Made by a program: the position numbers and the translations under genes
The notes under the pieces: model-generated
Databases searched by the model: none
Seen by the model: the letters and a program-made list of their open reading frames with translations, nothing else
Told to the model about the DNA's origin: nothing
From: Marivita sp.
GTDB lineage: Bacteria; Pseudomonadota; Alphaproteobacteria; Rhodobacterales; Rhodobacteraceae
Assembly (NCBI RefSeq): GCF_051251565.1
Contig: NZ_JBPOFB010000009.1
Coordinates: 40,108 to 104,107 of the forward strand
Reading direction: 5' to 3'
Length of the DNA stretch: 64,000 bases
Shown: piece by piece, positions 45,401-62,194 of the stretch
Numbering within the stretch: position 1 is the stretch's first letter
Layout of the letters: each line of letters starts with the position of its first letter

Positions 45401-46201
45401 TGCCACACGGAACACGCACCCATCGGTGACAAGCTGTGGCGGCGTCAGGCACAAGCCTTTCGCCGTCTGGAACGCTTGCAGCACTTTCGGAACATAGGCG
45501 CGGGTCTCGGCATAGTCGGGCACGCCGTTGTTGCGCACGACTGCGTTTTCGCCCGCGTTATATCCGGCAAGGACGAGGATCACGTCATTGTCGAACTTCT
45601 CCATCAGGAAATCGAGGAAGGCGACACCGCCCTTGATATTCTGTGCAGGCGCAAAACTGTCGGACACGCCGAACCGTTCTGCGGTGGCTGGCATAAGCTG
45701 CATCAACCCCTGCGCCCCAACCGAGCTTTGGGCATCGACGCGCCCTGCTGATTCAATCGCAATCACCGCGAGGGCCAAGGCGGGCGACACGCGCGTGCCC
45801 ACTGTGTGCAAAAGGATGTCTTTGCCGTGGCGTTCCGCAATAGTCTGGAGGTCTTGCAGACGCGGGGCGGCAACCCCCTGCCCCGAAGGTGGGTTCGACA
45901 GTCGCACCAGCGCTGGTTCCAAACGCCCCGGCCCCTTGGCCTCGATGGATGGGGAGACGTCACTCCAGAACCACGCCAATGTGTCACCCGCAGGCGCGCG
46001 CGGCTGTCCTTTAGCGGTGGGTGCAGCGACAGCGGCCGCGGAGGCCTGTGGTGCGATCTGAACGGTGATCCGTTTCTGTGCCCCTGACGAGGGTGGTTTG
46101 ACCCGCTTGGCCGAGAACTCTGGAAAGGGTGGCGGTTCGGCCCAAGCCGTCCCCATGCCAAGGGACACGGCCAAAAATGCCGCGACGATAAACCGTTTCA
46201 T
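45392..46201 (-). CDS. Lytic transglycosylase (SLT domain) protein
   Basis: Signal peptide from MKRFIVAAFLAVSLG (ATG 46201). Catalytic region AIESAG...GAQGLMQLMP...AGYNAGENAV. Confidence 0.85.
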   Translation of the reverse strand: MKRFIVAAFLAVSLGMGTAWAEPPPFPEFSAKRVKPPSSGAQKRITVQIAPQASAAAVAAPTAKGQPRAPAGDTLAWFWSDVSPSIEAKGPGRLEPALVRLSNPPSGQGVAAPRLQDLQTIAERHGKDILLHTVGTRVSPALALAVIAIESAGRVDAQSSVGAQGLMQLMPATAERFGVSDSFAPAQNIKGGVAFLDFLMEKFDNDVILVLAGYNAGENAVVRNNGVPDYAETRAYVPKVLQAFQTAKGLCLTPPQLVTDGCVFRVASR

Positions 46202-46559
46202 ATGCAGGCTCCTGCTCGATGCCCGTTTTTCTTTTGCCCGAGTATTACACAATTTTGCCGTCAAGGCCATTTCGTTTCGAATACGATATCAATCGGTTCC
46301 GGGTCTTGCCGTAAATCCCCGTCAAAAACATCAAATGTGGTGAATTTTGAAAATTTTTAACAATTAAAAACAATGGCTTGATCTTTAAATATTTACTATT
46401 TTAAGCGGCTACAAAAACGGACCAATGCCGTCAAACTGCTGCCCCAATCCGACGACTATAAGGGGCCATCCAAGACGGGATGGGGCGAATGAGAGAGCGC
46501 TCAACACAAAGTCTCGAGCTTGGCCAACGTGAGCAAAACCTAGGACTATGGAGATCAAC

Positions 46560-46748
46560 ATGATCAATTTCATCAAAAACTTCCGCAACGACGAAGACGG
46601 CGCAGTAACAGTTGACTGGGTTGTTCTGACAGCCGCAGTTGTGGGTCTGGCCATCGCAGCCTACGGCGCGATCCAGGGCAACACCGACACCGTTCTGACC
46701 GCAACTGGCGCCGCAGTTCTCAACGCGCAAGACTACCTCGGCGAATAA
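46560..46748 (+). CDS. flp: Flp family type IVb prepilin
   Basis: MINFIKNFRNDEDG/AVTVDWVVLTAAVVGLAIAAY. The Flp leader and hydrophobic stem carry a variant processing motif (G/xxxxDW instead of G/xxxxEY). GGAG lies 6 nt upstream of the ATG at 46560. Confidence 0.85.
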   Translation: MINFIKNFRNDEDGAVTVDWVVLTAAVVGLAIAAYGAIQGNTDTVLTATGAAVLNAQDYLGE

Positions 46749-46819: not shown

Positions 46820-47198
46820 TGGTGCATGAGTTTTAAAAATGCTCGGATTTTGCAGAACGCGTGTTGAGCATTAAACCAGCTTGATAACGGTGGACTGGCT
46901 TTTTGTGACAGCAGCGGCCATAGGGTTAGCAGTTGGTGGAGTGTCCAGATTGCAAAATCGCGGCGCGCCACTGTCTTTGACCACTGGCGGACAGATACCC
47001 CACACCGCTGACGTTGCGCGCTCGTAACAGCCCCGCCTCTACCCAAATCCAGCGTCTCGATGACACTTAGGGCACGCGGAACTCCACAGTTTCGTCACAA
47101 AGCGCCCAACACGCAGACACAATGGTCCGCTATATCCGACAATTGAACCATGTTTCAGCACACGTTTGGTGCATCATGAATACATGCAAGGAGGCAAA

Positions 47199-48056
47199 AT
47201 GCGCATCGTCTTTGGACTCGTCCTTATCGCTGGTCTGGCTTTGGCCGGATTTGCGGTTTACATGGCACAAAACTATATTGGCGCGTATCAAACCGCGCTT
47301 GAGCAGGAACGTAACAAGGTCACTGAAAGCGTACCAGTTCAACAGATCTACGTCGCCACACGGGCGATCGACTATGGTGAAGTGATCGCTGCCGAAGACA
47401 TCGCCTTGATGCCTTGGCCCAAGCAAACCCTGCCCGAAAACTTCTATGATGAGGCCAAACCGCTGAACGCCGAGGGCGACGCGATGCGTGTTGCCCTGCG
47501 CCCGATCGAAAAGCACGAGGCGATCATGGAATCCAAGGTCAGCGATCCGGGCGCGGATGCCGGCCTCACATCGCGGCTTGAGCGCGGCCAGCGCGCCTTT
47601 GCGATCAAAGTGGATGTCGCGTCAGGTGTGTCGGGCTTTCTTCGGCCCAGCGACCGGGTGGATGTCTACTGGACCGGGCGCGTCAGAAGCAACGACTCCA
47701 ACGCCCCTGTGGGTGAAGTGACCAAGCTGATCGAAACAGGTGTCCGGTTGATTGCCATTGACCAAACATCCCAAACAGAATCCGCAGCAACGACCATCGC
47801 ACGCACCGTGACCGTGGCCGCCAGCCCGCAGCAGGTAGCCTCGTTGGCACAGGCACAATCCACCGGACGGCTGTCGTTGTCGCTGATGGGGCGCAACGAC
47901 GACACTGTTGCCGACGTCATCGAAGTCGACCAACGGTCCCTTTTGGGACTGGTCGAGCAAGAAATTGTCAACGAACCCCGCGCTGCTGAAGTTTGTACCA
48001 TTCGTACCCGGCGGGGTGGGGAATTGGTTGAAATGCCCATCCCTTGTACGAACTGA
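47199..48056 (+). CDS. cpaB: Flp pilus assembly protein CpaB (RcpC)
   Basis: N-terminal TM helix MRIVFGLVLIAGLALAGFAV preceded by AAGGAGG. SAF/RcpC-like body. Position is between flp and the secretin gene. Confidence 0.85.
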   Translation: MRIVFGLVLIAGLALAGFAVYMAQNYIGAYQTALEQERNKVTESVPVQQIYVATRAIDYGEVIAAEDIALMPWPKQTLPENFYDEAKPLNAEGDAMRVALRPIEKHEAIMESKVSDPGADAGLTSRLERGQRAFAIKVDVASGVSGFLRPSDRVDVYWTGRVRSNDSNAPVGEVTKLIETGVRLIAIDQTSQTESAATTIARTVTVAASPQQVASLAQAQSTGRLSLSLMGRNDDTVADVIEVDQRSLLGLVEQEIVNEPRAAEVCTIRTRRGGELVEMPIPCTN

Positions 48057-48250
48057 CGAGGGCACTACCGCATTTGGACAAGTGCCGCCTTAAGGCACAG
48101 GATATGGCGCAGCATTATGTTGCGCCTTATCCACATCAAACACACCTCTGAAATCATTGATTCTTGCAATAAAACACAACTTGACGCAGGTTAATCGCAA
48201 TATCGGGCAAAAAGACCCAATCCTGAGGCGTGATCGGAAAGGCAGGTCAC

Positions 48251-49672
48251 ATGTACACGAGCAGTTCCTTCAAGGCCGCCCTGTTGGGCGCGGTCCTTGC
48301 CATTACTCCAGTGGCGCATGCAGCATTTGCTGAAACACTCCGCGTCATTCGAACAAATACAGAATCAACCCTGAACGTTCCGATGAACCGTGCGGTGGTG
48401 GTTGAAAGCGAAGTTCCGTTTGCAGAGCTGAGCATCGCCAACCCCTCCATTGCGGATATCTCATCGCTTTCAGAGCGCACGATTTATGTCCTCGGGAAAA
48501 CCCCGGGCACAACGACGCTGACCATCCTTGACGGGAATGGGCAGTTGATCACGAATGTGGACGTCACGGTCGCACCGGATTTGACCGAATTCAAAGAACG
48601 TCTTCGTCAGATTCTACCAGACGAAAAAATCGAAGTGCGCACGGCCAATGACGGGATCGTTCTTTCGGGAACGGTGTCGAGCACCATTCGCATGCAGCGC
48701 GCCCTTGACCTTGCATCGCGCTACGCACCCGAACGCGTATCGAACCTGATGTCGGTTGGTGGTGTTCAGCAGGTGATGCTGAAAGTCCGTTTTGCAGAGA
48801 TGCAGCGGTCTGTCTCCAAATCCCTCCAATCATCGCTTGCGACGGGCGGATCGGTTCTTGACGGCGACCTGGGTCTCGAACTTGGCACCGGCAATGCGGG
48901 CCCGTCGGCTGCGCTGGACAGCGTCGCAGACAAACTGCGATCGTCTGCGGATGCACAAAACGCGGTCCTGTTCGGCTTTAATGCCGGTGGTCTGGAAATC
49001 GGCATCCTTTTGGAAGCGTTGGAATCCAAAGGCGTTGTGCGCACCCTGGCAGAACCCAACCTGACATCCTTGTCGGGACAGGAAGCCAAGTTTCTGGCCG
49101 GTGGCGAATATCCCGTCCCCGTCGCCCAAGACAACGGTGCCATCGCAGTTGAATTCAAGCCCTTTGGCGTCGAGCTGAACTTCATCCCGCGTGTTCTGGA
49201 CGGCGATCTGATCAACCTCGAACTGGAAGCGGCCGTATCGTCAATTGACCCGGACAGCGGTGTCGACATTGGTGCCATTCGCATCGACGGCTTCCGCCGC
49301 CGCGAAACCCAGACCACGGTTGAGCTTCGGGACGGCGAAAGCTTTGCCATCGCCGGTCTGCTTCAGGACGATTTCCGTGACCTGAACGATCAGGTGCCAT
49401 GGCTTGGTGATATCCCAGTTCTCGGCGCGTTGTTCCGCAGTGCGGAATACCGGCGCGAACAATCCGAGCTGGTGATCATCATCACGCCGCATCTTGTCAC
49501 TCCGACACGCGGTGAAGCGCTTGCTTTGCCCACCGACCGTGTACGTCCCCCGACCGAAAAAGACCTGTTCCTCTTTGGACGCGTCGCCAGCGACTCGCGC
49601 AATTTGCGTGGCGCGGCTGGCGAAGTGGCCAAGCAGGACTTTAGCGGGTCCTACGGCTATGTGATGGATTGA
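48251..49672 (+). CDS. cpaC: Tad/Cpa pilus secretin CpaC (RcpA)
   Basis: Signal peptide. C-terminal secretin core: LAEPNLTSLSGQEAKFLAGGEYPVP...VPWLGDIPVLGALFRS...ELVIIITPHLV. Confidence 0.92.
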   Translation: MYTSSSFKAALLGAVLAITPVAHAAFAETLRVIRTNTESTLNVPMNRAVVVESEVPFAELSIANPSIADISSLSERTIYVLGKTPGTTTLTILDGNGQLITNVDVTVAPDLTEFKERLRQILPDEKIEVRTANDGIVLSGTVSSTIRMQRALDLASRYAPERVSNLMSVGGVQQVMLKVRFAEMQRSVSKSLQSSLATGGSVLDGDLGLELGTGNAGPSAALDSVADKLRSSADAQNAVLFGFNAGGLEIGILLEALESKGVVRTLAEPNLTSLSGQEAKFLAGGEYPVPVAQDNGAIAVEFKPFGVELNFIPRVLDGDLINLELEAAVSSIDPDSGVDIGAIRIDGFRRRETQTTVELRDGESFAIAGLLQDDFRDLNDQVPWLGDIPVLGALFRSAEYRREQSELVIIITPHLVTPTRGEALALPTDRVRPPTEKDLFLFGRVASDSRNLRGAAGEVAKQDFSGSYGYVMD

Positions 49673-49676
49673 AGCG

Positions 49677-50351
49677 ATGGCAGTTCAAAAAAATCTCCGT
49701 ATTCCCGCAGCCTTGACCGGCCTTGCCCTGCTTGCCGCCTGTGCAACCAGCGATCCGGTCTACAGCGCCTTCAATCGTGAAGCAGGTGCCTTGGTCGATC
49801 CCGGAAACTTTGGGGTTGCCACCATGAACAACGTGCAGATCATGAATGGCGAAAAGCGCTATACCTATGATTTATCGCAACGATTTGCCAGCGAAGTCAT
49901 GACCACGGTCAACTTTGCCTTCAACAGTGCCGTTCTCGACACCGGGGCAAAAGACACGTTGCGTGAACAGGCGAACTGGATCCGGCAATTTCCCGAAATC
50001 CACTTCCGCGTGTACGGGCACACCGACGCTGTTGGCAGCGAAGGCTACAACAAACGGCTTGGCCTGAACCGCGCACATGCGGTTGTGAACTTCCTTGCGT
50101 CGCAAGGTATCAGCAAGGACCGGCTTGAGGCGGTTGTCTCATTTGGGGAAACCCAGCCACTGATCGTGACCGAAGGCCGCGAACGCCGCAACCGGCGGAC
50201 CGTGACCGAGGTTTCGGGCTTTGTTGGGTCGCATCCTTCTGTCTTGGAAGGCAAATATGCCGAAATCATTTACCGCGAGTACGTGAACAGTGCCACACCC
50301 ACAATCGGGATCAGCGGCATTGAAGGCGGCGAATTCTCGACCTCTGAATAA
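49677..50351 (+). CDS. OmpA-family lipoprotein in the CpaD position
   Basis: Lipobox LALLAAC. OmpA C-terminal domain motifs: FAFNSAVL...VYGHTDAVGSEGYNKRLGLNRA...NRR. Confidence 0.85.
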   Translation: MAVQKNLRIPAALTGLALLAACATSDPVYSAFNREAGALVDPGNFGVATMNNVQIMNGEKRYTYDLSQRFASEVMTTVNFAFNSAVLDTGAKDTLREQANWIRQFPEIHFRVYGHTDAVGSEGYNKRLGLNRAHAVVNFLASQGISKDRLEAVVSFGETQPLIVTEGRERRNRRTVTEVSGFVGSHPSVLEGKYAEIIYREYVNSATPTIGISGIEGGEFSTSE

Positions 50352-50352
50352 A

Positions 50353-50378
50353 GGCACGGCCCCGCAAGGGGCCATGCC
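50353..50378 (+). other. Intra-operon GC-rich stem-loop with GNRA tetraloop
   Basis: GGCACGGCCCC-GCAA-GGGGCCATGCC is an 11-bp stem with one mismatch. It starts 2 nt after the OmpA-like stop and has no U-tract. Confidence 0.4.
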
Positions 50379-50535
50379 ACCGGCCTGAAATACCGTACAA
50401 TTTCGGTAATTCGGCCCCAATGTTGCCAAGTTTTCCGCCGAACTTCGGACCGTAGCAGTCCTTCCCGAGCGACTCGGGATTGGCCTTCACGATGCAGGCA
50501 AAACGCCGCTCGTGGATGTCGTGAAGTTAGAGGAA

Positions 50536-51786
50536 ATGAGGCACATGACGAGTATCCTTCCCAGCCCCCCGCAGCCGGCACCGCTTGTCGCGTGCACAAT
50601 CAGTCGGGATGTTCAGGAATTCGACCTCCTGATCGAAGACATGGAAGCTGTTCTGGGTGAAGCCTGGGGCGACCTTGGTTTTGACGAAGCCATGCACTTC
50701 TTTTCACAAGAAGAAGGCGAAGACCTTGAGTTCGTCGCTTTGGCCATCGACGCCGAGGATGAACCGAATGTGGATCACCTCTCCTCAATCATTGCTGCCG
50801 CAAAAGCGCGCGCGATCAAGGTTGTGTTGATTGCCCATGACGTGACGCCCTCGGCGTTGCATCATCTGCTGCGACAGGGCGCGGATGAATTTGTCCCCTA
50901 CCCGCTTCCCGAAGGCGAACTGGCCGCAGCCATCGACCGGATGCGCACGCCCGAAGCCCCCCGCGTGGTTGCTGGAAAGGAGGGCAAAAGTGTCAAGCTG
51001 TCCTCTGATGGGGACGGTGTGATCATCGCGGTGCAGGGCATGGCAGGCGGGTGCGGGGCCAGCACCTTTGCCACCAACTTGGCCTGGGAACTGGCGACTG
51101 TCACCAAAGAAAAGCCGCCTCGCGTGTGCATCATGGATCTTGGTCTGCAATTTGGTGCGGTGTCGACATATCTTGACGTGCAGCGCCGCGAAGCCGTGCT
51201 TGAACTGCTGTCAGACATCGATTCGATGGACGATGACACGTTTGGGCAAGCGCTCGTCACATTCGAAGAAAAGCTGCATGTCTTTACATCGCCAGCCGAT
51301 TTGCCGCCGCTCGACATTATTGGACAAACCGAAGTGCAGGCGCTTCTGGACACGGCATCGCGCCACTTTGACTTTGTGGTCGTGGATATGCCGCCCAGCC
51401 TCGTGCAGTGGTCTGAAACGGTGCTCTATGCCGCGCAGGTCTATTTCGGCGTGATCGAGCTCGACATGCGATCGGCACAGAACACGTTCCGGCTCAAACG
51501 GGCCTTGCAGGCCGAAGACCTGCCGTTCGAAAAGATCCGCTTTGTCCTGAACCGCGCCCCGAAATTCACCGACCTTCAGGGCAAAAGCCGCCTCAAGCGG
51601 ATGCAAGAAAGCCTTGATATCTCGATTGATCTGAATTTGCCCGATGGGGGCCGCGCCGTTGGCGAGGCCGGTGACCACGGTCAGCCCTTGGGCTTGCAAC
51701 AACCGAAAAACCCGCTTCGCAAGGAAATCGCCAAACTGGCGCAGTCGCTTTACGAAGTCGGCCGCTCTGATGCTGAAGCCGCCTGA
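50536..51786 (+). CDS. cpaE: Pilus assembly ATPase-like protein CpaE/TadZ (receiver-like N-domain plus MinD/ParA-like domain)
   Basis: IIAVQGMAGGCGASTFATNLAWELA is a deviant Walker A in a ParA/MinD-like fold, with VVVDMP as Walker B. The start is uncertain: candidates at 50512 (GTG), 50536 and 50545. Confidence 0.85.
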   Translation: MRHMTSILPSPPQPAPLVACTISRDVQEFDLLIEDMEAVLGEAWGDLGFDEAMHFFSQEEGEDLEFVALAIDAEDEPNVDHLSSIIAAAKARAIKVVLIAHDVTPSALHHLLRQGADEFVPYPLPEGELAAAIDRMRTPEAPRVVAGKEGKSVKLSSDGDGVIIAVQGMAGGCGASTFATNLAWELATVTKEKPPRVCIMDLGLQFGAVSTYLDVQRREAVLELLSDIDSMDDDTFGQALVTFEEKLHVFTSPADLPPLDIIGQTEVQALLDTASRHFDFVVVDMPPSLVQWSETVLYAAQVYFGVIELDMRSAQNTFRLKRALQAEDLPFEKIRFVLNRAPKFTDLQGKSRLKRMQESLDISIDLNLPDGGRAVGEAGDHGQPLGLQQPKNPLRKEIAKLAQSLYEVGRSDAEAA

Positions 51787-51797
51787 GGAGACCCGAT

Positions 51798-53240
51798 ATG
51801 TTTTCGCGTTACAAAAAGACGGCTGACGAACCGGTTGCGATCCCCAAGGCAGCCGCCCCCAAGGCGGCACCAGCAGCAAATTCGCCCGGCCCAGCCAAAG
51901 CTCTGCGCAGAGTTTTGCCGCCCAAAGCCGCGGTGGCGGAATCGGCGGATCGTGACAAGAAACGCAAGGAACGGCTCAGCGATATCAAGCTTGATCTGCA
52001 CCGCGCGTTGCTGGACAACCTCAACCTTGCCGCATTGGACAAGGCCACCGAGGGCGAGCTTAAGGAAGAGATCAACGCGATCATCACCGAGAGCCTTCAG
52101 GAAAAGGGAATGGTGCTCAACCGCGAAGAGCGCTCGGCCCTGAACCAGGAACTGTATGACGAGGTCAAGGGTCTTGGTCCGCTGGAAACCCTGCTAAAGG
52201 ACGAAACGGTCAGCGATATTCTTGTCAACGGCCCACATCAGATTTTTGTGGAACGCGAAGGCAAGCTGCAACTCAGCGATGTGACCTTCAAGGACGAACG
52301 CCACCTGATGCGGATCATCGACAAGATCGTGTCCGCTGTTGGGCGACGGGTCGATGAATCCAATCCGTATGTGGACGCCCGTTTGATGGACGGATCGCGT
52401 TTCAACGCGATGGTGCCACCGATTGCGGTAGATGGCTCTCTTGTCTCTATTCGTAAGTTCAAAACCGACAAGCTCAGCATCGACGATCTGGTTAATTTTG
52501 GCGCTTTCACCGAAGAAATGGCTGTTTATCTTCAGGCCGCCGTGGCGACCCGCCTGAACATCATCGTGTCTGGTGGTACGGGTTCGGGTAAGACGACGAC
52601 GTTGAACGCGCTGTCGTCCTTCATCGACGACAGCGAACGCATCCTGACCATTGAGGACACTGCGGAACTTCAGTTGCAGCAGTCCCATGTGGGCCGAATG
52701 GAAAGCCGACCCGCCAACGTTGAAGGCAAAGGCGCAGTCAGCCCGCGCGATTGTCTGAAGAACGCTTTGCGCATGCGCCCTGACCGGATCATCGTCGGGG
52801 AAACCCGTGGCGAGGAAGTCATCGACATGTTGCAGGCCATGAACACCGGCCACGACGGATCGATGACCACGATCCACGCCAACTCCGCCCGCGATGGTGT
52901 CAGCCGTCTGGAAAACATGATTGCGATGGCCGGGATCGAGATGCCGCTCAAGGCGATGCGCAGCCAGATTTCATCGGCTGTGAACCTGATCGTGCAGGCG
53001 TCACGTCTGCAAGACGGTTCTCGCCGCATGACGTCGATCACGGAAATCACCGGCATGGAAGGGGATGTCATCTCGATGCAAGAGATCTTCCGCTTTCAAC
53101 GCGTCGGCCTGACCCCGGAAAACAAGATCATCGGCCATTTCACCGCAACCGGTGTCCGTTCGAACTTTGCAGAACGCTTCAAGATGTGGGGCTACGACCT
53201 GCCCCCGTCGATTTATGAACCCTTCAACGGGAACCACTGA
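51798..53240 (+). CDS. cpaF: Tad secretion ATPase CpaF/TadA
   Basis: [16 protein letters not shown] Walker [11 protein letters not shown] Asp box, [12 protein letters not shown] Walker B, and [15 protein letters not shown] His box. Confidence 0.95.
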
Positions 53241-53242
53241 TT

Positions 53243-54211
53243 ATGACACTTAGCGCAGAACCCATTGTCTACGGCCTGATCTTCATTGCCGTCCTTGTGT
53301 TGGTCGAGGGCGTCTATCTTGTCGCGTTTGGCAAATCCATCAGCCTGAACAAACGCGTCAACCGCCGCCTTGAAATGCTCGACAAGGGGTCAAAGCGCGA
53401 CGAAGTGTTGGCCAAGCTCCGCAAGGAAATGGACCAGCACATGGCCTCGCGGGGGTTGCCGCTTTATTCGATCCTTGCAGACCGTGCCCAGAAGGCCGCG
53501 ATTGCCTTTACTCCCAAGCAGCTCATTCTTGTGATGATCGCTGTCAGCTTTGCAGCCTTTGTCGGCCTGTCGGTCGGTACAGAAGCCGGGCTTGCCGTAC
53601 GGATCGTGATGGGCATCGGGATGGGCGTGGGAGGGGTGTTTTTCTGGATTTCGTCCAAGGCCAACAAACGTCTTTCCTTGATCGAAGAACAATTGCCGGA
53701 TGCGGTGGAACTCATGGTGCGGTCATTGCGCGTGGGTCACCCGTTTTCGTCTGCGATTTCGATCGTATCAAAGGAAATCAAGGATCCTCTGGCAACCGAG
53801 TTCGGGATTATTGCCGACGAGTCCAGCTATGGCCGCGATATTGGTGACGCGCTTAAGGCAATGGCCGAACGTCTGGACATGCAGGATTTGCGGTTTCTCG
53901 CAGTGGCCGTGTCGATCCAGCAGCAGTCCGGGGGCAACCTTGCCGAAATCCTCGAGGGCCTGGCAAAGGTGATCCGTGCGCGGTTCCGTCTGTTCCGCCG
54001 TGTGAAAGCCATCACCGCAGAAGCCCAGTGGTCCGGCAAATTCTTGTCCGCCTTCCCGATTGGCGCGCTGATCGTCATTCAGTTGACCGATCCGAATTAC
54101 TACGACGAGGTTTTGGACCACCCATGGTTCATACCCGCCTGTTTCGTGGTTGGATCGTTTCTGGTCGTCAACCTTCTGGTGATGCGCACCCTTGTGAATA
54201 TCAAAGTCTGA
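53243..54211 (+). CDS. tadB: Type II secretion system F-family protein TadB
   Basis: 322 aa inner-membrane ORF with a T2SSF-like central domain, immediately after cpaF. Confidence 0.88.
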   Translation: MTLSAEPIVYGLIFIAVLVLVEGVYLVAFGKSISLNKRVNRRLEMLDKGSKRDEVLAKLRKEMDQHMASRGLPLYSILADRAQKAAIAFTPKQLILVMIAVSFAAFVGLSVGTEAGLAVRIVMGIGMGVGGVFFWISSKANKRLSLIEEQLPDAVELMVRSLRVGHPFSSAISIVSKEIKDPLATEFGIIADESSYGRDIGDALKAMAERLDMQDLRFLAVAVSIQQQSGGNLAEILEGLAKVIRARFRLFRRVKAITAEAQWSGKFLSAFPIGALIVIQLTDPNYYDEVLDHPWFIPACFVVGSFLVVNLLVMRTLVNIKV

Positions 54212-54221
54212 GGACCGGAAT

Positions 54222-55196
54222 ATGCAAGCTTTCAACCAATTCGCCTACACTCTTCTGGGCCCCGCCGGACCGATGATCATCATCGCGTCGCTGGGGTTGT
54301 TGCTGCTTGTGCTGGCGATCCCGATGTTCTTTCTGTCCCGGTCCAACCCGATGGACCGCCTGAACACTCAGGCCGGGCGCAATGCGCTTGACGCGCAAAC
54401 GCGCGCCGTGTTGCGCGACAAAAGGAAGAACGAAAAGCTTAATAAATACGCGCAATTCCTTGAACCGCAGGACGCAAAAGAACTGTCCGAAGTGCGGATG
54501 AAACTGTTGCGTGCCGGATACCGCACCAAGGACGCGGTTCAGGTCTACTACTTCGCGCAGTTCGCCCTGGGCATTGGTGGCCTGATCATCGGTGTGGCGT
54601 ATTTCATGCTTGTGATGGACCCATCCCAGGCAACCACCCAGCAAACGGTCATGTATACGCTTGGGCCGGGCGCTGCGGGTTATTACTTCCCGAAATACTG
54701 GATCACCAAGCGGGTCCAAACGCGGCAGGAAGAGATCGAAACCGGCTTTCCTGACAGTCTTGACATGATGCTTGTCTGCGTCGAAGCGGGGCAGTCCATG
54801 GACCAGTCCATTGTGCGCGTGGGCACCGAACTACGCGCCTCCTACCCCTCCCTTGCCGAGGAATTCGAACTGGTCAGCCACGAAATGAAGGCCGGCAAGG
54901 ACAAATCGGCTGTTCTGAATGACATGGGTGAACGCTGCGGGGTGCAGGACGTGATGTCCTTTGTCACCGTTCTCAACCAAAGCCAAAGCTTCGGCACCCC
55001 GATTTCTGACGCGCTTCGGGTTTATGCGGCAGAAATGCGTGACAAGCGGGTCATGCGGGCCGAAGAAAAGGCAAACAAGTTGCCAACCAAAATGACTTTG
55101 ACCACAATGATGTTCACCGTGCCGCCGCTGCTGATCATTCTTGTGGGTCCATCGGTTCTTGGCATTCAGAAACTGGGTGAAATGGGGGGGCCGTAA
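54222..55196 (+). CDS. tadC: Type II secretion system F-family protein TadC
   Basis: 324 aa ORF. FPDSLDMMLVCVEAGQS and RAEEKANKLPTKMT are typical of TadC. Confidence 0.88.
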   Translation: MQAFNQFAYTLLGPAGPMIIIASLGLLLLVLAIPMFFLSRSNPMDRLNTQAGRNALDAQTRAVLRDKRKNEKLNKYAQFLEPQDAKELSEVRMKLLRAGYRTKDAVQVYYFAQFALGIGGLIIGVAYFMLVMDPSQATTQQTVMYTLGPGAAGYYFPKYWITKRVQTRQEEIETGFPDSLDMMLVCVEAGQSMDQSIVRVGTELRASYPSLAEEFELVSHEMKAGKDKSAVLNDMGERCGVQDVMSFVTVLNQSQSFGTPISDALRVYAAEMRDKRVMRAEEKANKLPTKMTLTTMMFTVPPLLIILVGPSVLGIQKLGEMGGP

Positions 55197-55200
55197 CCCG

Positions 55201-55761
55201 ATGAAGCTTGGCCGCACCTTGGCCGTCGTGATCGCATTCGGAGTGACCGCCTGTGGACCGGGCGGTTTTTCCACGTCCGACGGTTCTGTTTTTGCCCCCA
55301 GCGTGGACCCAAGAGGTGCCGCTGTTGATCAATTGACGGTCGGCCACAGGCTGATGGCTGCGGGCGAACATGAACTCGCGCTCAGCTCATTTCAGCTTGC
55401 AGCGGCGGAACAGGGCCTGACCCCCGAAGTGATCACATCGCTAGGCTCTGCCAACCTCGCGCTTGGCCGCCTGAACCAGGCAGAAGACCTTTTGCGCCGC
55501 GCCATCAAAGACGATCCAGACAGCCCGGATGCTTGGAACAATCTTGGCGTTGTGTTGATCGAACAGGGCAAAACCCCCGAGGCCGCACAGACTTTTCAAC
55601 GGGCCTTCGCGCTCGACAATGGCGAAAGTGTTGCAATTCGGGATAATCTGCGCTTGGCTCTCGCAAAAATGGAAAATTCGCAGTATGATGCGACAATAGA
55701 ACAAGAATATAAACTTGTGCGGCGCGGCAGCGGTAGCTTCTTAATCCGTCCGACACAGTGA
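55201..55761 (+). CDS. TPR-repeat lipoprotein (TadD-like)
   Basis: MKLGRTLAVVIAFGVTACG lipobox. TPR repeats (AWNNLGVVLIEQGKTPEAAQTFQRAFALD). Confidence 0.8.
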   Translation: MKLGRTLAVVIAFGVTACGPGGFSTSDGSVFAPSVDPRGAAVDQLTVGHRLMAAGEHELALSSFQLAAAEQGLTPEVITSLGSANLALGRLNQAEDLLRRAIKDDPDSPDAWNNLGVVLIEQGKTPEAAQTFQRAFALDNGESVAIRDNLRLALAKMENSQYDATIEQEYKLVRRGSGSFLIRPTQ

Positions 55762-55788
55762 TGAGGCAGAGCAGTAGAGGACGCAAAA

Positions 55789-56649
55789 ATGCGCCATCCC
55801 TTTATCGTAACCCTGTGTGTAACAGGGGCGTTTGCACTTGCTGGGTGCGACCAACGTATTGATACCGAAGCTGTCGATCGGGAGTTTCAGGGCGTAAACG
55901 CCATTGATGGAACCAACCTGAACGAGGTGATGCTGACAGTATCGGACCCCAACGAGTCCGTATCCTATTTCCAAAGGGCCAGCAACGCCGCGCCCGAGCG
56001 TATGGACCTGCTCCGCAGCCTGGCCATTTCGCTTATTCGTGCCAGACGCAACACCGAAGGTGTGGCCGCATGGGCACGGGTGGTCGCGCATGAAGAGGCG
56101 ACCGACGATGACCGCGTCGAACTGGCAGATGCGCTGATCCGCAACAATGAATGGGACCGCGCTGAAACCGTTCTTAATGCGATCAATCCCACGCATGAAA
56201 CGTTCAAGCGCTATCGCCTTGAAGCGATGATCGCTGACAGCAATAAACAGTGGGACAAGGCCGACAGTTTCTATGAAATCGCCGTTGGCCTGACGACCAC
56301 CCCGGCATCGGTCCTGAACAACTGGGGCTTTTCCAAACTGACCCGTGGTGATTTTCCGGGGGCTGAACGCCTGTTCACTCAGGCGATCCAGAATGACAAC
56401 GACCTGTTCACCGCAAAGAACAACCTCGTGCTCGCGCGCGGGGCGCAGGGCAATTATGTTCTGCCCGTGGTGCCGATGACGCAGGTGGAACGCGCAGAGC
56501 TGCTGCATTCCATGGGGCTGGCAGCGGTCAAGCGCGGCGATGTCATCACCGGTCGCGGCTTGATGCGCGAAGCAATCGAAACCCATCCGCAGCATTTTGA
56601 GGCCGCTTCACGGAGCCTGAAGGCGCTTGAATCCTCGGTAGTGAACTGA
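55789..56649 (+). CDS. Second TPR-repeat lipoprotein
   Basis: Lipobox FALAGC. TPR-like repeats (NNWGFSKLTRGDFPGAERLFTQAIQND). Confidence 0.75.
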   Translation: MRHPFIVTLCVTGAFALAGCDQRIDTEAVDREFQGVNAIDGTNLNEVMLTVSDPNESVSYFQRASNAAPERMDLLRSLAISLIRARRNTEGVAAWARVVAHEEATDDDRVELADALIRNNEWDRAETVLNAINPTHETFKRYRLEAMIADSNKQWDKADSFYEIAVGLTTTPASVLNNWGFSKLTRGDFPGAERLFTQAIQNDNDLFTAKNNLVLARGAQGNYVLPVVPMTQVERAELLHSMGLAAVKRGDVITGRGLMREAIETHPQHFEAASRSLKALESSVVN

Positions 56650-56657
56650 GCCGCCCG

Positions 56658-57149
56658 ATGGATGTCTCGGCGTTTTCGGCATTGGTGTTTCTGCCTTTCG
56701 TGCTGCCTGTCTGCGTCTATGTCGCGTTTTCGGATATGCGCGACATGCGCATTCCGAACCAGATGGTCGTGCTTTTGTTCGGCATCTACGCGGTGGTCGG
56801 CCTGATCGCCCTGCCCTTTGATGCATATCTCTGGCGCTACCTGCACCTAGTCGTTGTGCTGGTCGCAGGCATTGCGTTGAATGCAGGCGGGATCATGGGC
56901 GCAGGCGATGCCAAATTCGCCGCCGCCGCCGCCCCCTTTATCCATGTGGGGGATATGCGGTTCCTGATGGCGCTGTTTGCCGCCAACATTCTGGCTGCGT
57001 TTGTGGCGCATCGCATCGGCAAACACACAGCTCTGCGCAAGATCGCTCCGCATTGGGCAAGCTGGACAAACCCCAAATTCCCCATGGGACTGACCCTTGG
57101 CGGGACATTGGCCATCTACCTTGCCTTGGGGGCGTGGTTTGGCAGGTGA
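56658..57149 (+). CDS. cpaA: A24-family prepilin peptidase CpaA/TadV
   Basis: 163 aa polytopic ORF with two catalytic Asp contexts, FSDMRDMRIPN and GAGDAKF. Confidence 0.85.
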   Translation: MDVSAFSALVFLPFVLPVCVYVAFSDMRDMRIPNQMVVLLFGIYAVVGLIALPFDAYLWRYLHLVVVLVAGIALNAGGIMGAGDAKFAAAAAPFIHVGDMRFLMALFAANILAAFVAHRIGKHTALRKIAPHWASWTNPKFPMGLTLGGTLAIYLALGAWFGR

Positions 57150-57244
57150 CTGCCAACAACCGGTCCCGCCCTAGCCCTTCTGTTGCCACATTGGCCTGCG
57201 AGGGTCAGCCTAACATACTTGGCTGAATCACTCCGGGGCTTCCG

Positions 57245-58549
57245 ATGAACATGCAAACAAGCGCTGTCATGGCGCCTCCTCCGCCCAAGCGATTGGAAGA
57301 CATGCGGCTTCAGCCGGTGATGATGCGCGACATCATCCTCAAGACGATCTTCCGCAAGAACGTCTCAACGGCAACCGCAATTGCTCAGTCTGTATGCCTG
57401 CCTGTGCCCATCACCCAAGAGCTGATCGACTACGCGCGCGGTCAGTTGCTGCTTGAGGCCACAGGCACCCTGAACGCGAATAACGGGTCAGAGATGGGCT
57501 ATCAGCTCACCGATGCGGGCAAGGCCCGTGCGCTGGATGCGTTGGCGCAATCCGAGTACTATGGTGCGATGCCGGTCCCGCTTGAGGTCTATTCCGAACA
57601 GATCAAACGGCAGTCGATCCGCAACATCCACATCTCGCGGCAACAGCTGACCGATGCGATGGGGCACCTTATTTTGCCGCCTGCCCTTCTGGGCGATCTT
57701 GGTCCTGCCGTTGGCGCGGGACGCTCGATCCTGATGTACGGCCCTCCGGGCAACGGGAAATCGTCGATCTCTAACGGCATCCGCGACGCGATGGGGGACA
57801 AGATTTATATCCCCCACGCCATCGAATACGCTGGTCAGGTGATCACCGTCTATGATCCCATTGTGCACAGCGCTGCCGAAACCGCGTCAAGCGCAAGCGG
57901 CCTGCGCCTGACCAACCGCTTTGACACCCGCTACGTTCTGTGCGCGCGCCCCACCGTCATCACCGGTGGTGAATTGTCTCTTGATATGCTCGACCTTGTC
58001 TATAACCCGACAGCGCGCACCTATCAGGCGCCGCTACAACTCAAATCCACCGGCGGCATCTTTATCGTCGACGACCTTGGTCGTCAGGCCGAACCGCCGC
58101 AAAAGCTGGTCAACCGCTGGATTGTTCCGCTGGAGGAATCCCGCGATATCCTTGCGTTGCAGTCAGGCGAAAAATTCGAAGTGCCGTTTGACACGCTGGT
58201 TATTTTCTCGACCAACTTCCACCCGAACGAGATCTTTGACCAGGCCGCCCTGCGCCGGATCTTTTTCAAGATCAAAATCGACGGGCCAGATCAGCAGAAC
58301 TTTCTCAAGATTTTCTCAATGGTGGCCAAGAAGAAGAAAATGCAGCTCTGTGAAACATCGCTGATCCACCTTCTCAAGACCAAGTATCCGACCATCGGCA
58401 ACATCTACGCCAACTACCAACCGGTCTTCCTGATCGACCAGATGATCGCGGTCTGCGACTTTGAAGGGTGGCCCTATAAGATGACCCCCGAACTGGTGGA
58501 CCGTGCCTGGGCGAACATGTTCGTGAAGGACGAAAAGATTGTGAAATAA
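57245..58549 (+). CDS. AAA+ ATPase of unknown function with N-terminal winged-helix-like region
   Basis: 434 aa ORF. Walker A ILMYGPPGNGKSS, Walker B IFIVDDLG, sensor-1-like VIFSTN, and ALRRI (Arg finger/sensor 2 candidate). Same strand as the tad genes, 95 nt after cpaA. Confidence 0.8.
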   Translation: MNMQTSAVMAPPPPKRLEDMRLQPVMMRDIILKTIFRKNVSTATAIAQSVCLPVPITQELIDYARGQLLLEATGTLNANNGSEMGYQLTDAGKARALDALAQSEYYGAMPVPLEVYSEQIKRQSIRNIHISRQQLTDAMGHLILPPALLGDLGPAVGAGRSILMYGPPGNGKSSISNGIRDAMGDKIYIPHAIEYAGQVITVYDPIVHSAAETASSASGLRLTNRFDTRYVLCARPTVITGGELSLDMLDLVYNPTARTYQAPLQLKSTGGIFIVDDLGRQAEPPQKLVNRWIVPLEESRDILALQSGEKFEVPFDTLVIFSTNFHPNEIFDQAALRRIFFKIKIDGPDQQNFLKIFSMVAKKKKMQLCETSLIHLLKTKYPTIGNIYANYQPVFLIDQMIAVCDFEGWPYKMTPELVDRAWANMFVKDEKIVK

Positions 58550-58718: not shown

Positions 58719-58795
<77 letters not shown>

Positions 58796-59011: not shown

Positions 59012-62000
59012 CTAAAGCCGGGCCAATTGCTCGATTTTTTGTGCGTCTTCGGTAGTTGGGGCGACAACCACGATGGCTTGCACGTCACGCCGCAACATCA
59101 AAGCCTTCGCACGCGCTTCTAAATCCACCGCACATAAGGCCTGCGCATGCCCCTTACCGTCCAGCGCGTCTTGAGCACACAACAACACCGCATTCAGACC
59201 GGACAGTCGCAATTGATCCCATTGAGCCCGCGCGCGCGACAGCGCCTGTTCACCGCCCGTGTGAACATGGATCGGAATGCGGCCCATGTTCACCAATATC
59301 CGCTCAAGATATTCTGAGAGATGCCGTTTCGAAATGTCACCGCCGCCCAGCAAAGGCGCAAAGTTGATTTCGTTGATCGCTGCCCCTGTGGCATGCCAGG
59401 GCTGCGTGATATCCGTACTGATAAGATCCACACCAGCAACGTCCAAGCCAAACAGGTTTGCCACGGCAATTGCCAAACGCGTGTTCTCTGGGTGAATTGT
59501 GTCCGTGACGTCTTCGTCCACCCCGCCCCAAGCGGTCGTCTCGATCCTGCGCAGCGGCACGAAGTTTCCTGCCATGGGAACAGCGTCAGGGCTTAGACCC
59601 GCATTCTTCAAACTGATCTGTGCCAGATCATCCACAGGTCTGATCCCAGAACGCTTCCAGGGTGGCGCGGCCTCTTGAACGGCACATTCCGCATCAACCA
59701 ATGCTGTGACGGTTGAAACACCATTGGCATACACTCCGATTGGAAGGCGTTGGACAGCGTATAACAGCGCGCCACGGACCACGAACAATCGATGGCAGGT
59801 CCCCGCGATCTGCCGTTCGACGATGACCGCCTTACCGGGCGAACATTCATGCGCGCGCTGAAACGCAGAATTCAGCTCTGCTGCGCCCACATCGACACTC
59901 ACGCCTTCCCCGCGCTCAAGATCCGCTGGTTTGACAACGACCGGATAGCCAAACCGCTCAGAGACATCCTGCGCCGCCTCGGGTGTGGACACTTGGACGT
60001 GATCCGGCGCAGGCAACCCGGCCTCGCGCAAAAGCGCCGCCGACACCAGTTTGTTCTTGGACCATGTCGCGCCAAACGCGCTGTCCTGATCCGTGGTGCT
60101 GCGATGAATACGGCACCCGTGCGCGCCAAGACCCAACTGGTACACGCCATTGGGCAACGGGAAATACGGAATACCCAAATCATACGCGGCGCGCAGCACT
60201 TGAAATGTCGATTTACCCTTCGCAGTCGCGTCCGAAAAAGGCGTCACAACCTCGTTTGTAATCGCTTGGAAAAACTGTGCCCGTTCAGTTGGGGCCTCAG
60301 GTCGTTTGCCCCGCACCCAAAGCGCAACCTTGAATGCCACCTTGAACACCTTATCTACCAAATCGCCGGAAACCAGCGTCGCGCGCGGCATGAGAAAAGC
60401 AACCTCCAAGGTATCCTGAGTACCTGGCGCGCGCTTAAACCCGACAATCTCGAAACGATCAAAGATTGGTACACGCAGGGTTTGCAAAAAACATACCGTC
60501 AGATCAAGCACCGACGAAAACCATGCATAAGCCTCATTCTGCGACCGGTTGCGCGCCTCTTGGGCCGTCAGCGGTGCCAGATCGGCGTCAAGGCACGCGA
60601 TCCACGCCACAAGGTCCTCTGCCTTGACATCGGTGGGAAGCTTAAAGCTGACCGACCGGATAGGTTTGGCTTTTTGCGGTTCAGCGGTCTTGGGTTTGGC
60701 TGGCGAGGGGGCCTTTTGCTCAAGTCGGTCCCATTTTTTGCGAAAGACCTCCGCAAAGGCACTACGCGGCAATTTTCCTTGTTCATTGATTGGAAGCCGT
60801 TCGACGAATTCGACATCATATAAGGCATGTTTTCCAATCTGGTCACGGACTGACTGCACTAATTCTTTTGCGTCAAGCCGCGCACTGGCCGCAACAACAA
60901 CCAACGCCACTGGTAGATCCTGAAGTTGTTTGTGAGGCAATGGCCTTACTGCCACATCAAGGACACCTGATACCTGCCGGAGACACTTTTCTACTTCTGC
61001 TGGGAACAGATTTACACCGCTGACAATCATCATATCATCAGCGCGCCCAAGATGAGCCAATTGCCCATCTGGCATAAAATACCCGACGTCGCCCGGATAA
61101 TACCAGCCATCCCGAAATGCTTTGGCCGTTGCTTCAGGGTCGCCATGATAGCCGTCAATTTGCGTATCTGTCTTAATGCGGATCAAACCCTGCTTCCCGC
61201 TTGGAACAAGGTTTCCAAAGTCATCAACAATTTCTACATCTACATCATCGCAAATATGCCCAACACTTTTCAGATTTTGAAAGACATCTTTAGGACGCGC
61301 AATACTAACAATGCTACTTTCGTTGCTACCGTAAATGATATGAACTTGTGGCGTCAGGCATGATGCAGCTCTCTTTCTTAGATCAGCTGAGATTGTGGCT
61401 GAGCTTAAAAATAGAATGTGCAATTTTGAAAATATGGGAGTATCATGACTTGAAGTTTGGGAAATTATTTTCTCTGCATGATATGGCGTAGCATATATGA
61501 TGTTTACCTTTTCCTCTTCTACTTTCTGGCACAGTTTTTCGATACTTACCCTTGAGGTATGAATTGCATCACAAAACAGAATAGCCTTTAGATTTATTCT
61601 TTTTCCCGCGAGGAAATGAATTCCAATCATTGAATGAATTGTATATCTTTCATTTCCACTTCTTTGGAAATGTTGTCGTGCAGTGCGGCGCATTTCTGTT
61701 TCATGCGTACATGGAATAATTTTTGGCTGTCCCGTCGATCCTGAGCCATTTGCGAAAATCCAAGGTTGCGCCGGGTCGACGCTGGCCGGACGCAAAACAC
61801 CATCGGATTGGGCGGCCTGCGCAAGCGAATACGATATGTCGTATATTTCGGCCAAAGCATCTGCCCCAGAATATTCATCCCCCGAAAGCACCTTTGCGCA
61901 TCCTGTCATTTGGAAAATTCGGTCACGTTGGGCCTCTGGCATGGACCGCGGCACGCTGATGACGGTTCCACCAACATGCGCGATGGCCAGTGTTGCGATC

Positions 62001-62194
62001 CAATGGTCTACAGGATCGTCCAGCCGGATTGCCACAACATCGCCCAGCAACACGCCTGCCTTGTCCAAACCCGCCGAAACGGTCGCCACACGACGCCCCA
62101 ATTCCGCGTAAGTCAGGTCACCTGTTGCCGCGTAGATCGCGGTTGCATCGGGCCGAAGATCAACTTGATCACACAAGATTTGGGTAATGTTCAT
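59012..62194 (-). CDS. Fusion protein: ANL-superfamily adenylate-forming domain, Pro/Lys/Ala linker, then a cyanophycin-synthetase-like N domain and ATP-grasp (G) domain
   Basis: 1060 aa ORF with GGAG 6 nt upstream of the ATG. ANL motifs: ANGSGSTGQPK, IIYGSNE, YYPGDVG, GRADDMMIVSGVNLFPAEVE, GKLPR. The C-terminal half is collinear with CphA1: LGIPYFPL..YQLGLGAHGCRIHRSTTD, GYPVVVKPADLERGEGVSV, IVERQIAGTCHRLFVV, VDEDVTDTIHPEN, GLDVAGVDLISTDI, INEINFAPL. Confidence 0.85.
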   Translation of the reverse strand: MNITQILCDQVDLRPDATAIYAATGDLTYAELGRRVATVSAGLDKAGVLLGDVVAIRLDDPVDHWIATLAIAHVGGTVISVPRSMPEAQRDRIFQMTGCAKVLSGDEYSGADALAEIYDISYSLAQAAQSDGVLRPASVDPAQPWIFANGSGSTGQPKIIPCTHETEMRRTARQHFQRSGNERYTIHSMIGIHFLAGKRINLKAILFCDAIHTSRVSIEKLCQKVEEEKVNIIYATPYHAEKIISQTSSHDTPIFSKLHILFLSSATISADLRKRAASCLTPQVHIIYGSNESSIVSIARPKDVFQNLKSVGHICDDVDVEIVDDFGNLVPSGKQGLIRIKTDTQIDGYHGDPEATAKAFRDGWYYPGDVGYFMPDGQLAHLGRADDMMIVSGVNLFPAEVEKCLRQVSGVLDVAVRPLPHKQLQDLPVALVVVAASARLDAKELVQSVRDQIGKHALYDVEFVERLPINEQGKLPRSAFAEVFRKKWDRLEQKAPSPAKPKTAEPQKAKPIRSVSFKLPTDVKAEDLVAWIACLDADLAPLTAQEARNRSQNEAYAWFSSVLDLTVCFLQTLRVPIFDRFEIVGFKRAPGTQDTLEVAFLMPRATLVSGDLVDKVFKVAFKVALWVRGKRPEAPTERAQFFQAITNEVVTPFSDATAKGKSTFQVLRAAYDLGIPYFPLPNGVYQLGLGAHGCRIHRSTTDQDSAFGATWSKNKLVSAALLREAGLPAPDHVQVSTPEAAQDVSERFGYPVVVKPADLERGEGVSVDVGAAELNSAFQRAHECSPGKAVIVERQIAGTCHRLFVVRGALLYAVQRLPIGVYANGVSTVTALVDAECAVQEAAPPWKRSGIRPVDDLAQISLKNAGLSPDAVPMAGNFVPLRRIETTAWGGVDEDVTDTIHPENTRLAIAVANLFGLDVAGVDLISTDITQPWHATGAAINEINFAPLLGGGDISKRHLSEYLERILVNMGRIPIHVHTGGEQALSRARAQWDQLRLSGLNAVLLCAQDALDGKGHAQALCAVDLEARAKALMLRRDVQAIVVVAPTTEDAQKIEQLARL

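Follow-up and report, generated by a model that had tools for sequence, protein, structure and literature searches.

In nonribosomal peptide synthetases (NRPS), natural recombination of adenylation domains takes place preferentially near conserved core motifs, with Acore subdomains as its targets (Baunach et al. 2021, PMC8097286). Such Acore subdomain swaps dominate NRPS diversification, as in the microcystin, Ahp-cyclodepsipeptide and hormaomycin pathways (PMC8097286). Here we analysed a 64,000-nt stretch of DNA from Marivita sp. (contig NZ_JBPOFB010000009.1), called the window below, which encoded a protein of 1060 amino acids (aa) that joined an ANL adenylation domain to an ATP-grasp-like half. 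Within this fusion gene, the segment between core motifs A3 and A6, called the patch below, was far richer in A+T than the sequence on either side. We lean towards reading the gene as an intragenic recombination mosaic whose A3-A6 segment came from a low-G+C relative, on evidence that was compositional and not phylogenetic. Such a mosaic would add a natural adenylation-subdomain swap in a non-NRPS enzyme family to the swaps already known in NRPS.

The patch resembled the NRPS Acore swaps (PMC8097286) in being a unit within the N-terminal core that had its edges near core motifs and covered the substrate pocket, while the C-terminal subdomain and the neighbouring domains were untouched. However, the window protein was not an NRPS, since a Pfam search found neither a carrier domain (PF00550) nor a condensation domain (PF00668) in it. 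The NRPS swaps also rested on phylogeny, the exchanged segment being closer to another module than to its ortholog, whereas the present case rested on composition and the phylogenetic test was negative or uninformative. In an engineered counterpart, attributed to Kries, Niquille and Hilvert in 2015, a flavodoxin-like subdomain of about 130 aa was reportedly swapped in GrsA-PheA as a laboratory construct. The patch likewise corresponded to a contiguous alpha/beta subdomain between A3/A4 and A5/A6 with the specificity residues, which was transplantable in GrsA-PheA, but it was longer (174 aa) and natural. Mosaic alleles of pbp2x and penA in Streptococcus and Neisseria arose by interspecies recombination with known close donor species and carry blocks that are 5-20% divergent at the DNA level. 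The fusion gene shared with them a divergent block in an otherwise conserved gene, putative crossovers in conserved stretches and an affected ligand-binding part; in contrast, the patch was saturated at synonymous sites against every known relative and its donor was not found. Stand-alone ANL enzymes, namely 4-chlorobenzoate-CoA ligase (CBAL), MenE, feruloyl-CoA synthetase and McbA, matched the adenylation domain in fold and motifs, although their identity to it was only 20-25% and the window protein was fused to an N+G half similar to that of cyanophycin synthetase.

The gene and the parts of its adenylation domain were located as follows, with motif names according to the established ANL/NRPS nomenclature.

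59012..62194, reverse strand: fusion gene, 1060 aa (open reading frame, ORF; Pfam, NCBIfam, PDB, AlphaFold and Foldseek)
61727..62194, reverse strand: N-terminal adenylation flank, aa 1-156, G+C about 0.57, codon adaptation index (CAI) 0.57
61721..61747, reverse strand: core motif A3, GSGSTGQPK, aa 150-158, with the upstream composition breakpoint at or just after it
61205..61726, reverse strand: AT-rich patch, aa 157-330, G+C 37.0% (segmentation, codon statistics, structure model and CBAL alignment)
61319..61333, reverse strand: A5-like motif YGSNE, aa 288-292, within the patch, its E292 family-invariant
61139..61189, reverse strand: core motif A6, GLIRIKTDTQIDGYHGD, aa 336-352, with the downstream breakpoint within or just before it
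60725..61204, reverse strand: C-terminal adenylation flank, aa 331-490, motifs A6-A10, CAI 0.51, 72% identical to the relative P0055

Two-breakpoint maximum-likelihood segmentation of the fusion gene had its optimum at 61205-61724 (aa 157-330). This interval had a G+C of 0.367, compared with 0.560 for the rest of the gene, and the log-likelihood rose by 32; in none of 26 other long ORFs of the window did it rise by more than 5.4 under the same segmentation. The 2-unit support intervals of the breakpoints were 61140-61229 and 61665-61732, the upstream one taking in A3 and the downstream one A6. At a length of 530 nt, the patch was the lowest-G+C interval of the 64 kb (0.372; mean 0.594, standard deviation 0.037), with a runner-up at 0.472. 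The region 61200-61730, in which a preliminary description had placed the AT-rich stretch, contained 37.3% G+C, compared with 59.5% in the whole window. The line counts given in that description were reproduced exactly for 61381-61440 (22/60), 61441-61500 (20/60) and 59581-59640 (32/60), and the line 61741-61800, put at about 58%, was rich in G+C as stated, at 36/60 or 60%. The reading frame was indeed open through the patch, and the reported richness in Ile, Lys, Ser and Asn was also borne out: these residues made up 31.6% of aa 155-331 and 16.0% of the remaining protein. The G+C dip is real and far outside chance.

The discontinuity was located at synonymous sites. G+C at third codon positions (GC3), for which a uniform value along the gene had been named beforehand as a sign against import, was 0.26 in the patch, 0.51 in the adenylation flanks, 0.61 in aa 491-1060 and 0.70 as the median of the other ORFs in the window, and the difference between patch and flanks had a Fisher p of 7e-8. 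Along codons 160-330, GC3 remained between 0.17 and 0.37. At residues shared with P0055 it was 0.23 in the patch and 0.47 elsewhere (p = 4e-4), and since the drop persisted at identical residues, amino-acid content was not the explanation. The codons AGA, AGG, ATA, CTA and TTA accounted for 14 of the 43 Arg, Ile and Leu codons in the patch (33%), against 13 of 182 (7%) in the remaining gene and 2.6% in host genes. The CAI, calculated relative to the genes of the window, fell to 0.38 in the patch, compared with 0.51-0.61 for the other parts of the gene and 0.69 for host genes (minimum 0.61). Thus, the patch was atypical for its resident genome in G+C, GC3 and codon usage, the compositional features by which horizontal acquisition is judged. 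The whole fusion gene was also atypical for the host (GC3 0.52); it is somewhat foreign-looking as a whole, and the patch is far more so.

The G+C content at the first, second and third codon positions of the patch (GC1, GC2 and GC3) was 47.1/37.4/26.4. According to regressions reportedly published by Lawrence and Ochman in 1997 (Lawrence-Ochman/Muto-Osawa), a gene at equilibrium in a genome of 34.7% G+C would have 48.2/36.1/26.4, which the patch fitted. Checked on the host, the same regressions turned a GC3 of 0.70 into 60.5% G+C, and the window had 59.5%. Recent local drift would shift GC3 first, with GC1 and GC2 lagging behind, and therefore the equilibration of the patch at all three positions argues for a long residence at low G+C. 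The adenylation flanks (60725-61204 and 61727-62194) had a GC1 of 66 and a GC2 of 43, typical of a genome of about 62% G+C, but a GC3 of only 51. This disequilibrium of the flanks ran opposite to the ordinary amelioration of a low-G+C import.

The patch coincided with the pocket subdomain between A3 and A6, as had been proposed from the sequence at the outset. It started at K158 of A3, in which S151, G152, T154 and G155 were family-invariant, and stopped six residues short of A6. In the AlphaFold model it formed a (beta-alpha)5 subdomain from E158-163 through E319-323, mostly with a predicted local distance difference test (pLDDT) score of 80-93, and the confidence of the model was similar in the remaining protein. 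The aryl pocket of CBAL is made up of F184, H207, V208, V209, F249, A280, I303, G305, M310 and N311. All ten of these residues aligned to aa 170-295, inside the patch, in a HMMER alignment whose identities were checked in the printed sequence. The patch was a discrete Acore segment that had its edges near conserved core motifs and covered the pocket residues, as expected of a subdomain swap. At 12 predicted pocket positions, it differed from P0055 at 8 and from another relative, P0002, also at 8, and these predicted differences make a change of specificity plausible.

The segment was intact. Its family-invariant residues (L272, E292, G312, V323 and D324) were all retained, and near-invariant ones likewise. 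Compared with P0001, a 99%-identical gene from an independent algal metagenome, the patch had six synonymous and three non-synonymous differences, with a ratio of non-synonymous to synonymous polymorphism (pN/pS) of 0.14. Judged from these sequence comparisons, the patch is functional and under purifying selection, and it was fixed in strains about 1% apart. The synonymous differences from P0001 clustered in the patch (6 of 14, expected 2, p = 0.01), and in four of these six the window had G/C where P0001 had A/T.

The patch was also present in independent assemblies. A 4015-nt contig from an independent study had identical junctions, an even depth of 42 and 1% divergence, which excludes an assembly chimera. 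The sequencing runs X1-X3 contained 96-100% of the sampled words of the patch and of the flanks, several seawater runs contained both parts, and a contig from X9 extended 27 nt across the lower boundary. Sequencing runs were also screened for strains combining these flanks with another patch. In X9, X10 and X12, the flanks were covered at 98-100% identity and no contig lay over 61232-61846; depth in these runs was only about 4x, there were further gaps, and none of the contigs continued into unlike sequence. An 873-nt joint of 61160 to 62034 in X5, which had seemed to be an in-frame deletion allele, was rejected because it corresponded to a co-occurring P0055-type gene that aligned at its conserved ends only.

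The fusion family comprised about 27 full-length members at 33-53% identity. Apart from P0001, the closest relative was P0055, a stand-alone adenylation domain of 495 aa from a Marivita metagenome-assembled genome, which was 57% identical; it was recovered by exhaustive search and had not been retrieved by a full-length word-index search. For the N-terminal flank, the patch and the C-terminal flank, identity was 57%, 43% and 72% to P0055 and 53%, 38% and 63% to P0002. Among the 17 family genes for which DNA was available, a strong dip was found only in the lineage of the window gene (patch-minus-flank difference of -0.17 in G+C and -0.25 in GC3). High-G+C homologs that shared the AT-rich segment would have pointed to selection on amino-acid composition according to the preliminary description; the eight family genes from backgrounds of 0.50-0.73 G+C did not share it, the difference in G+C being between -0.04 and +0.02. 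The available relatives were either 99% identical, with the same mosaic, or 57% identical or less. Third-position identity to the relatives was 0.25-0.46 throughout, and the nucleotide identity between the window gene and the P0055-type homolog was 0.53-0.69, without long identical words. Since synonymous sites were saturated, breakpoints could not be mapped against the relatives at the nucleotide level.

Elsewhere in the family, flank and patch trees were in conflict. P0003 and P0006 grouped with 83% support in the flanks, whereas P0006 and P0008 grouped with 97% in the patch, and P0004 and P0010 (80% in the flanks) were similarly replaced by P0004 and P0011 (89% in the patch). This suggests that the A3-A6 segment can have its own history within the family. 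With respect to pocket signatures, a subgroup of P0004, P0007, P0010, P0011, P0012, P0014 and P0017 had a near-identical predicted signature (R-H/D-F/Y-Y-A/S-Y/F/H-V/I/L-G-L/V/F-G-H/N-T) and flanks only about 50% identical, and the window gene, P0055 and P0002 had three different ones.

A number of results weighed against a recombination event in the window gene. In bootstrapped neighbour-joining trees, patch and flanks both fell into a clade of the window gene, P0055 and P0002 with 100% bootstrap each, so that phylogenetic incongruence was not seen for the window gene and the patch did not differ from the flanks in its affinity. The branching order within the trio was unsupported in every partition. 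The patch carried specific motifs common to the trio, and thus the grouping was not merely compositional attraction. Neither a donor nor a pre-exchange allele was found: when 1.84 billion cluster representatives were searched exhaustively by phmmer with only the patch as query, the best non-self match was P0055 (44%), followed by other family members at 35% or less, tblastn against plasmids and phages gave no match, a scan of JGI metagenomes yielded only a 28% relative, and a scan of genome contigs yielded only distant family members. Separate searches with the patch and the flanks had been suggested as a way to reveal different origins, and the patch-only search returned the same closest relative. 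Given the shared clade and this best match, the patch was not derived from a different ANL family or from a distant branch of its own, and any donor would have to belong to that same small clade, as a low-G+C member not yet sampled.

The behaviour of the relatives pointed in the same direction. In the patch, all three clade members were about equally far from the remaining family (25-29% identity), and the identity between P0055 and P0002 also fell there, to 45% compared with 53% and 61% in the flanks. This equal remoteness, along with the differing predicted pocket sets, suggests that the subdomain diversifies fast across the whole clade. A weak dip of -0.03 to -0.09, mainly at codon positions 1 and 2, was present in the same segment of most closer marine relatives, and a small share of the effect therefore belongs to the family as such. 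In a three-point relative-rate analysis with out-groups, the patch branch was 0.41 for the window gene and 0.60 for P0055, so there was no simple long-branch signal. By contrast, two tests indicated an additional effect in the lineage of the window gene. Its own amino-acid changes were in excess in the patch, numbering 32 there and 29 in the flanks, compared with 49 and 86 in the two relatives combined (p = 0.04). In the flanks these changes tended to raise G+C (12 up, 5 down), and in the patch they tended to lower it (11 up, 17 down; p = 0.065), whereas the direction of change was uniform across both gene parts in P0055 and P0002. Both tests, for excess and for direction, were only marginally significant. 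Additionally, the flanks were themselves outside compositional equilibrium, so the import could be either the patch or the flanks.

Divergence in place, without any transfer, would make A3-A6 the segment of the family that evolves fastest and is intrinsically most AT-rich, owing to relaxed or redirected constraint on the pocket, with AT-biased mutation and weak codon selection lowering its G+C further in the lineage of the window gene. We regard this as unlikely, although a good part of the data agrees with it: patch and flanks shared one clade at full bootstrap support, the patch outpaced the flanks in divergence in all three members, the predicted pocket positions differed in each of them, and no donor emerged from the exhaustive phmmer search, plasmids, phages or JGI metagenomes. 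The weak dips also fit, being found in P0055, P0002, P0003, P0006, P0007, P0008 and P0009; in three of these (P0006, P0007 and P0009), no 522-nt interval of the entire gene was lower in G+C than the one starting at codon 157-180. Moreover, the concentration of synonymous differences from P0001 in the patch (6/14, p = 0.01) could mean a locally higher mutation rate. However, the drop in GC3 was -0.25 in the window gene and only 0 to -0.12 in its relatives, and it was seen at conserved residues too. All three codon positions were equilibrated to about 35% G+C, where recent drift would have moved GC3 first, and the flanks of the same gene had changed in the opposite direction. The low pN/pS (0.14) indicated that the segment was not relaxed at present, and no mechanism is known for a sharply bounded drop of synonymous G+C over 520 bp within a gene of a 60% G+C genome. 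If the segment did arise in place, it would represent an unusual, sharply localised synonymous AT-enrichment without a standard explanation.

The exchange could also have had the opposite polarity, the patch being the remnant of a low-G+C gene in which aa 1-156 and the part from about aa 331 onward were overwritten from a higher-G+C relative. The two closest relatives were low in G+C throughout (P0055 0.46 in a 0.61 genome, P0002 0.49), the flanks of the window gene had unusually short branches, and their identity to a high-G+C out-group was 46% and 56%, compared with 38-39% and 49-50% for P0055 and P0002, while the patch was equal in all three. We nevertheless consider this course even less likely than divergence in place, because the flanks still fell together with P0055 and P0002 (100% bootstrap), their short branches can be explained by a shared amino-acid composition that is driven by G+C, no part of P0055 or P0002 was as low in G+C as the patch (0.37), and two conversion tracts or one very long tract would be needed in place of one short tract. 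It is highly improbable that a function in DNA or RNA kept the patch AT-rich, such as a promoter inside the gene for its ATP-grasp half, antisense transcription, a region bound by xenogeneic silencers or programmed slow translation. In G+C-rich alphaproteobacteria, silencers such as MucR are known to target AT-rich DNA, and the patch was dense in rare codons, but its promoter-like sites were not enriched (5 compared with 2.9 +/- 2.0 in shuffled sequences), no Rfam match was found in the region, the relatives were without the AT-rich feature, and a rare-codon zone of 174 codons far exceeds known pause clusters. As for a chimeric contig assembled from the homologs of two organisms, the window probably stems from a draft or metagenome-derived assembly, and the same samples also contained a second homolog, of the P0055 type. 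Still, this reading is effectively refuted by the independent 4015-nt contig with its identical junctions, by the runs X1-X3 and the boundary-crossing contig of X9, and by the lack of long identical words between the two homologs.

Returning to the intragenic mosaic, a tract of about 520 bp reaching from A3 to just before A6 would have been replaced via homologous, gene-conversion-type recombination. The incoming copy would have been the corresponding segment of a relative from the same narrow gene clade, after long residence of that relative in a genome of about 35% G+C. Crossovers would have taken place at or adjoining conserved motifs, and the recipient would have kept its ATP-binding motifs, its mobile C-terminal subdomain and the fused ATP-grasp half. 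Because the replaced (beta-alpha)5 subdomain holds essentially all pocket-lining residues, the exchange probably changed the acid that is adenylated. The fuller proposal that a 174-residue A3-to-A6 unit from an organism of about 35% G+C was grafted into a Roseobacter-group ANL/cyanophycin-synthetase-like fusion and re-tuned its pocket with catalysis intact is tentative, and we would not put it forward as the expected outcome. It was from the discontinuity that we inferred recombination as its cause, along with the direction and timing of the transfer and any change in specificity. The patch may even predate the arrival of the gene in its present host, since the gene as a whole looks acquired. 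Thus, the mosaic with a low-GC donor that the preliminary description had postulated found support in composition, codon usage and codon-position equilibrium, and found none in tree topology or in the patch-only search for a donor.

If the mosaic is real, its borders (K158 of A3 and about six residues before A6) would mark a successful evolutionary cut and re-join of an adenylation domain outside NRPS. They would delimit, with precision, an exchange unit already validated by nature in an enzyme family that is still uncharacterised, and would hence offer a ready-made rule for designing stand-alone ANL enzymes with altered specificity. The case would also be an example of swap detection from composition alone where donors are unsampled. 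Furthermore, it draws attention to the adenylation/ATP-grasp fusion enzymes of marine bacteria, with their quickly diversifying pocket subdomain.

The remaining architecture of the protein was as follows. The ANL adenylation domain occupied aa 1-490, followed by a disordered linker (aa 491-509) and by an N+G (ATP-grasp)-like half from about aa 510 to 1060. AMP-binding (PF00501, aa 10-350, E = 7e-37) and AMP-binding_C (PF13193, aa 400-474, E = 4e-10) both passed the Pfam cut-off. Besides A3 and the A5-like motif, the ANL core motifs included A7 YYPGD (aa 365-369), A8 GRADD (aa 383-387) and A10 GK (aa 473-474), and the core-motif residues were invariant across the 27 family members. The AlphaFold model, built from 27 family sequences, had a mean pLDDT of 87.4 and disorder only at aa 491-509. 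In Foldseek searches, the N-terminal half superposed on MenE, McbA and CBAL with a template modelling score (TM-score) on the target of up to 0.88, a value reached with MenE (5x8f; root mean square deviation 2.9 A, about 485 columns), in agreement with an ANL fold. The C-terminal half superposed on the N+G domains of TeCphA1 and resembled the N and G domains of cyanophycin synthetase. Two further features belonged to this half of the protein and to the region behind it.

59348..60238, reverse strand: ATP-grasp (G-domain-like) region, aa 653-949 (NCBIfam and PDB cyanophycin synthetase matches)
58719..58795, forward strand: tRNA-Met gene, 216 nt downstream of the stop codon of the fusion gene

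The protein did not belong to CphA1: only positions 152-448 of 871 in the profile were matched, with 209 bits against a cut-off of 877, and the Mur-ligase-like M domain was missing. By its profile matches, the product of the fusion gene is G-domain-like and not a cyanophycin synthetase. A literature search turned up no characterised member of the adenylation/ATP-grasp fusion family, which appears to be uncharacterised.

Other family members varied in domain arrangement and surroundings. In P0057 (1633 aa), the ATP-grasp half came after two adenylation domains in tandem, and P0056 (1153 aa) had an N-terminal extension and two adenylation domains. P0055 ended exactly at the start of the disordered linker of the fusion protein. 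Its gene (L088, 5001-6488, G+C 0.46) was inserted between trkA and an ntrX-like gene in a genome of 0.61 G+C and, given this difference, also looks horizontally acquired; P0055-type genes and the fusion gene co-occurred in the same algal metagenomes. A FemAB_like (PF04339) gene adjoined the fusion gene in Roseicyclus (P0008), P0006 and P0007, and in P0008 and P0006 the fusion gene also adjoined SapC and alpha/beta-hydrolase genes.

In the window, the fusion gene was solitary and sat between the tRNA-Met gene and the paa operon. Metagenome contigs ended at the tRNA-Met gene and within paaA. Flanked by these two neighbours, the compositionally atypical gene may represent a one-gene islet; its position beside a tRNA gene is consistent with acquisition of the whole gene, yet a repeat search found no significant att-like repeats flanking the fusion gene or the patch. 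At the borders there were no att repeats, integrase or insertion sequence (IS), and only the tRNA-Met gene adjoined the gene as a whole; a tract exchanged by homologous recombination would not be expected to carry such signatures. Elsewhere in the window, G+C was second lowest (0.47) at about 46113-46640, in an intergenic region upstream of a tad/cpa-type pilus cluster (47169-58549).

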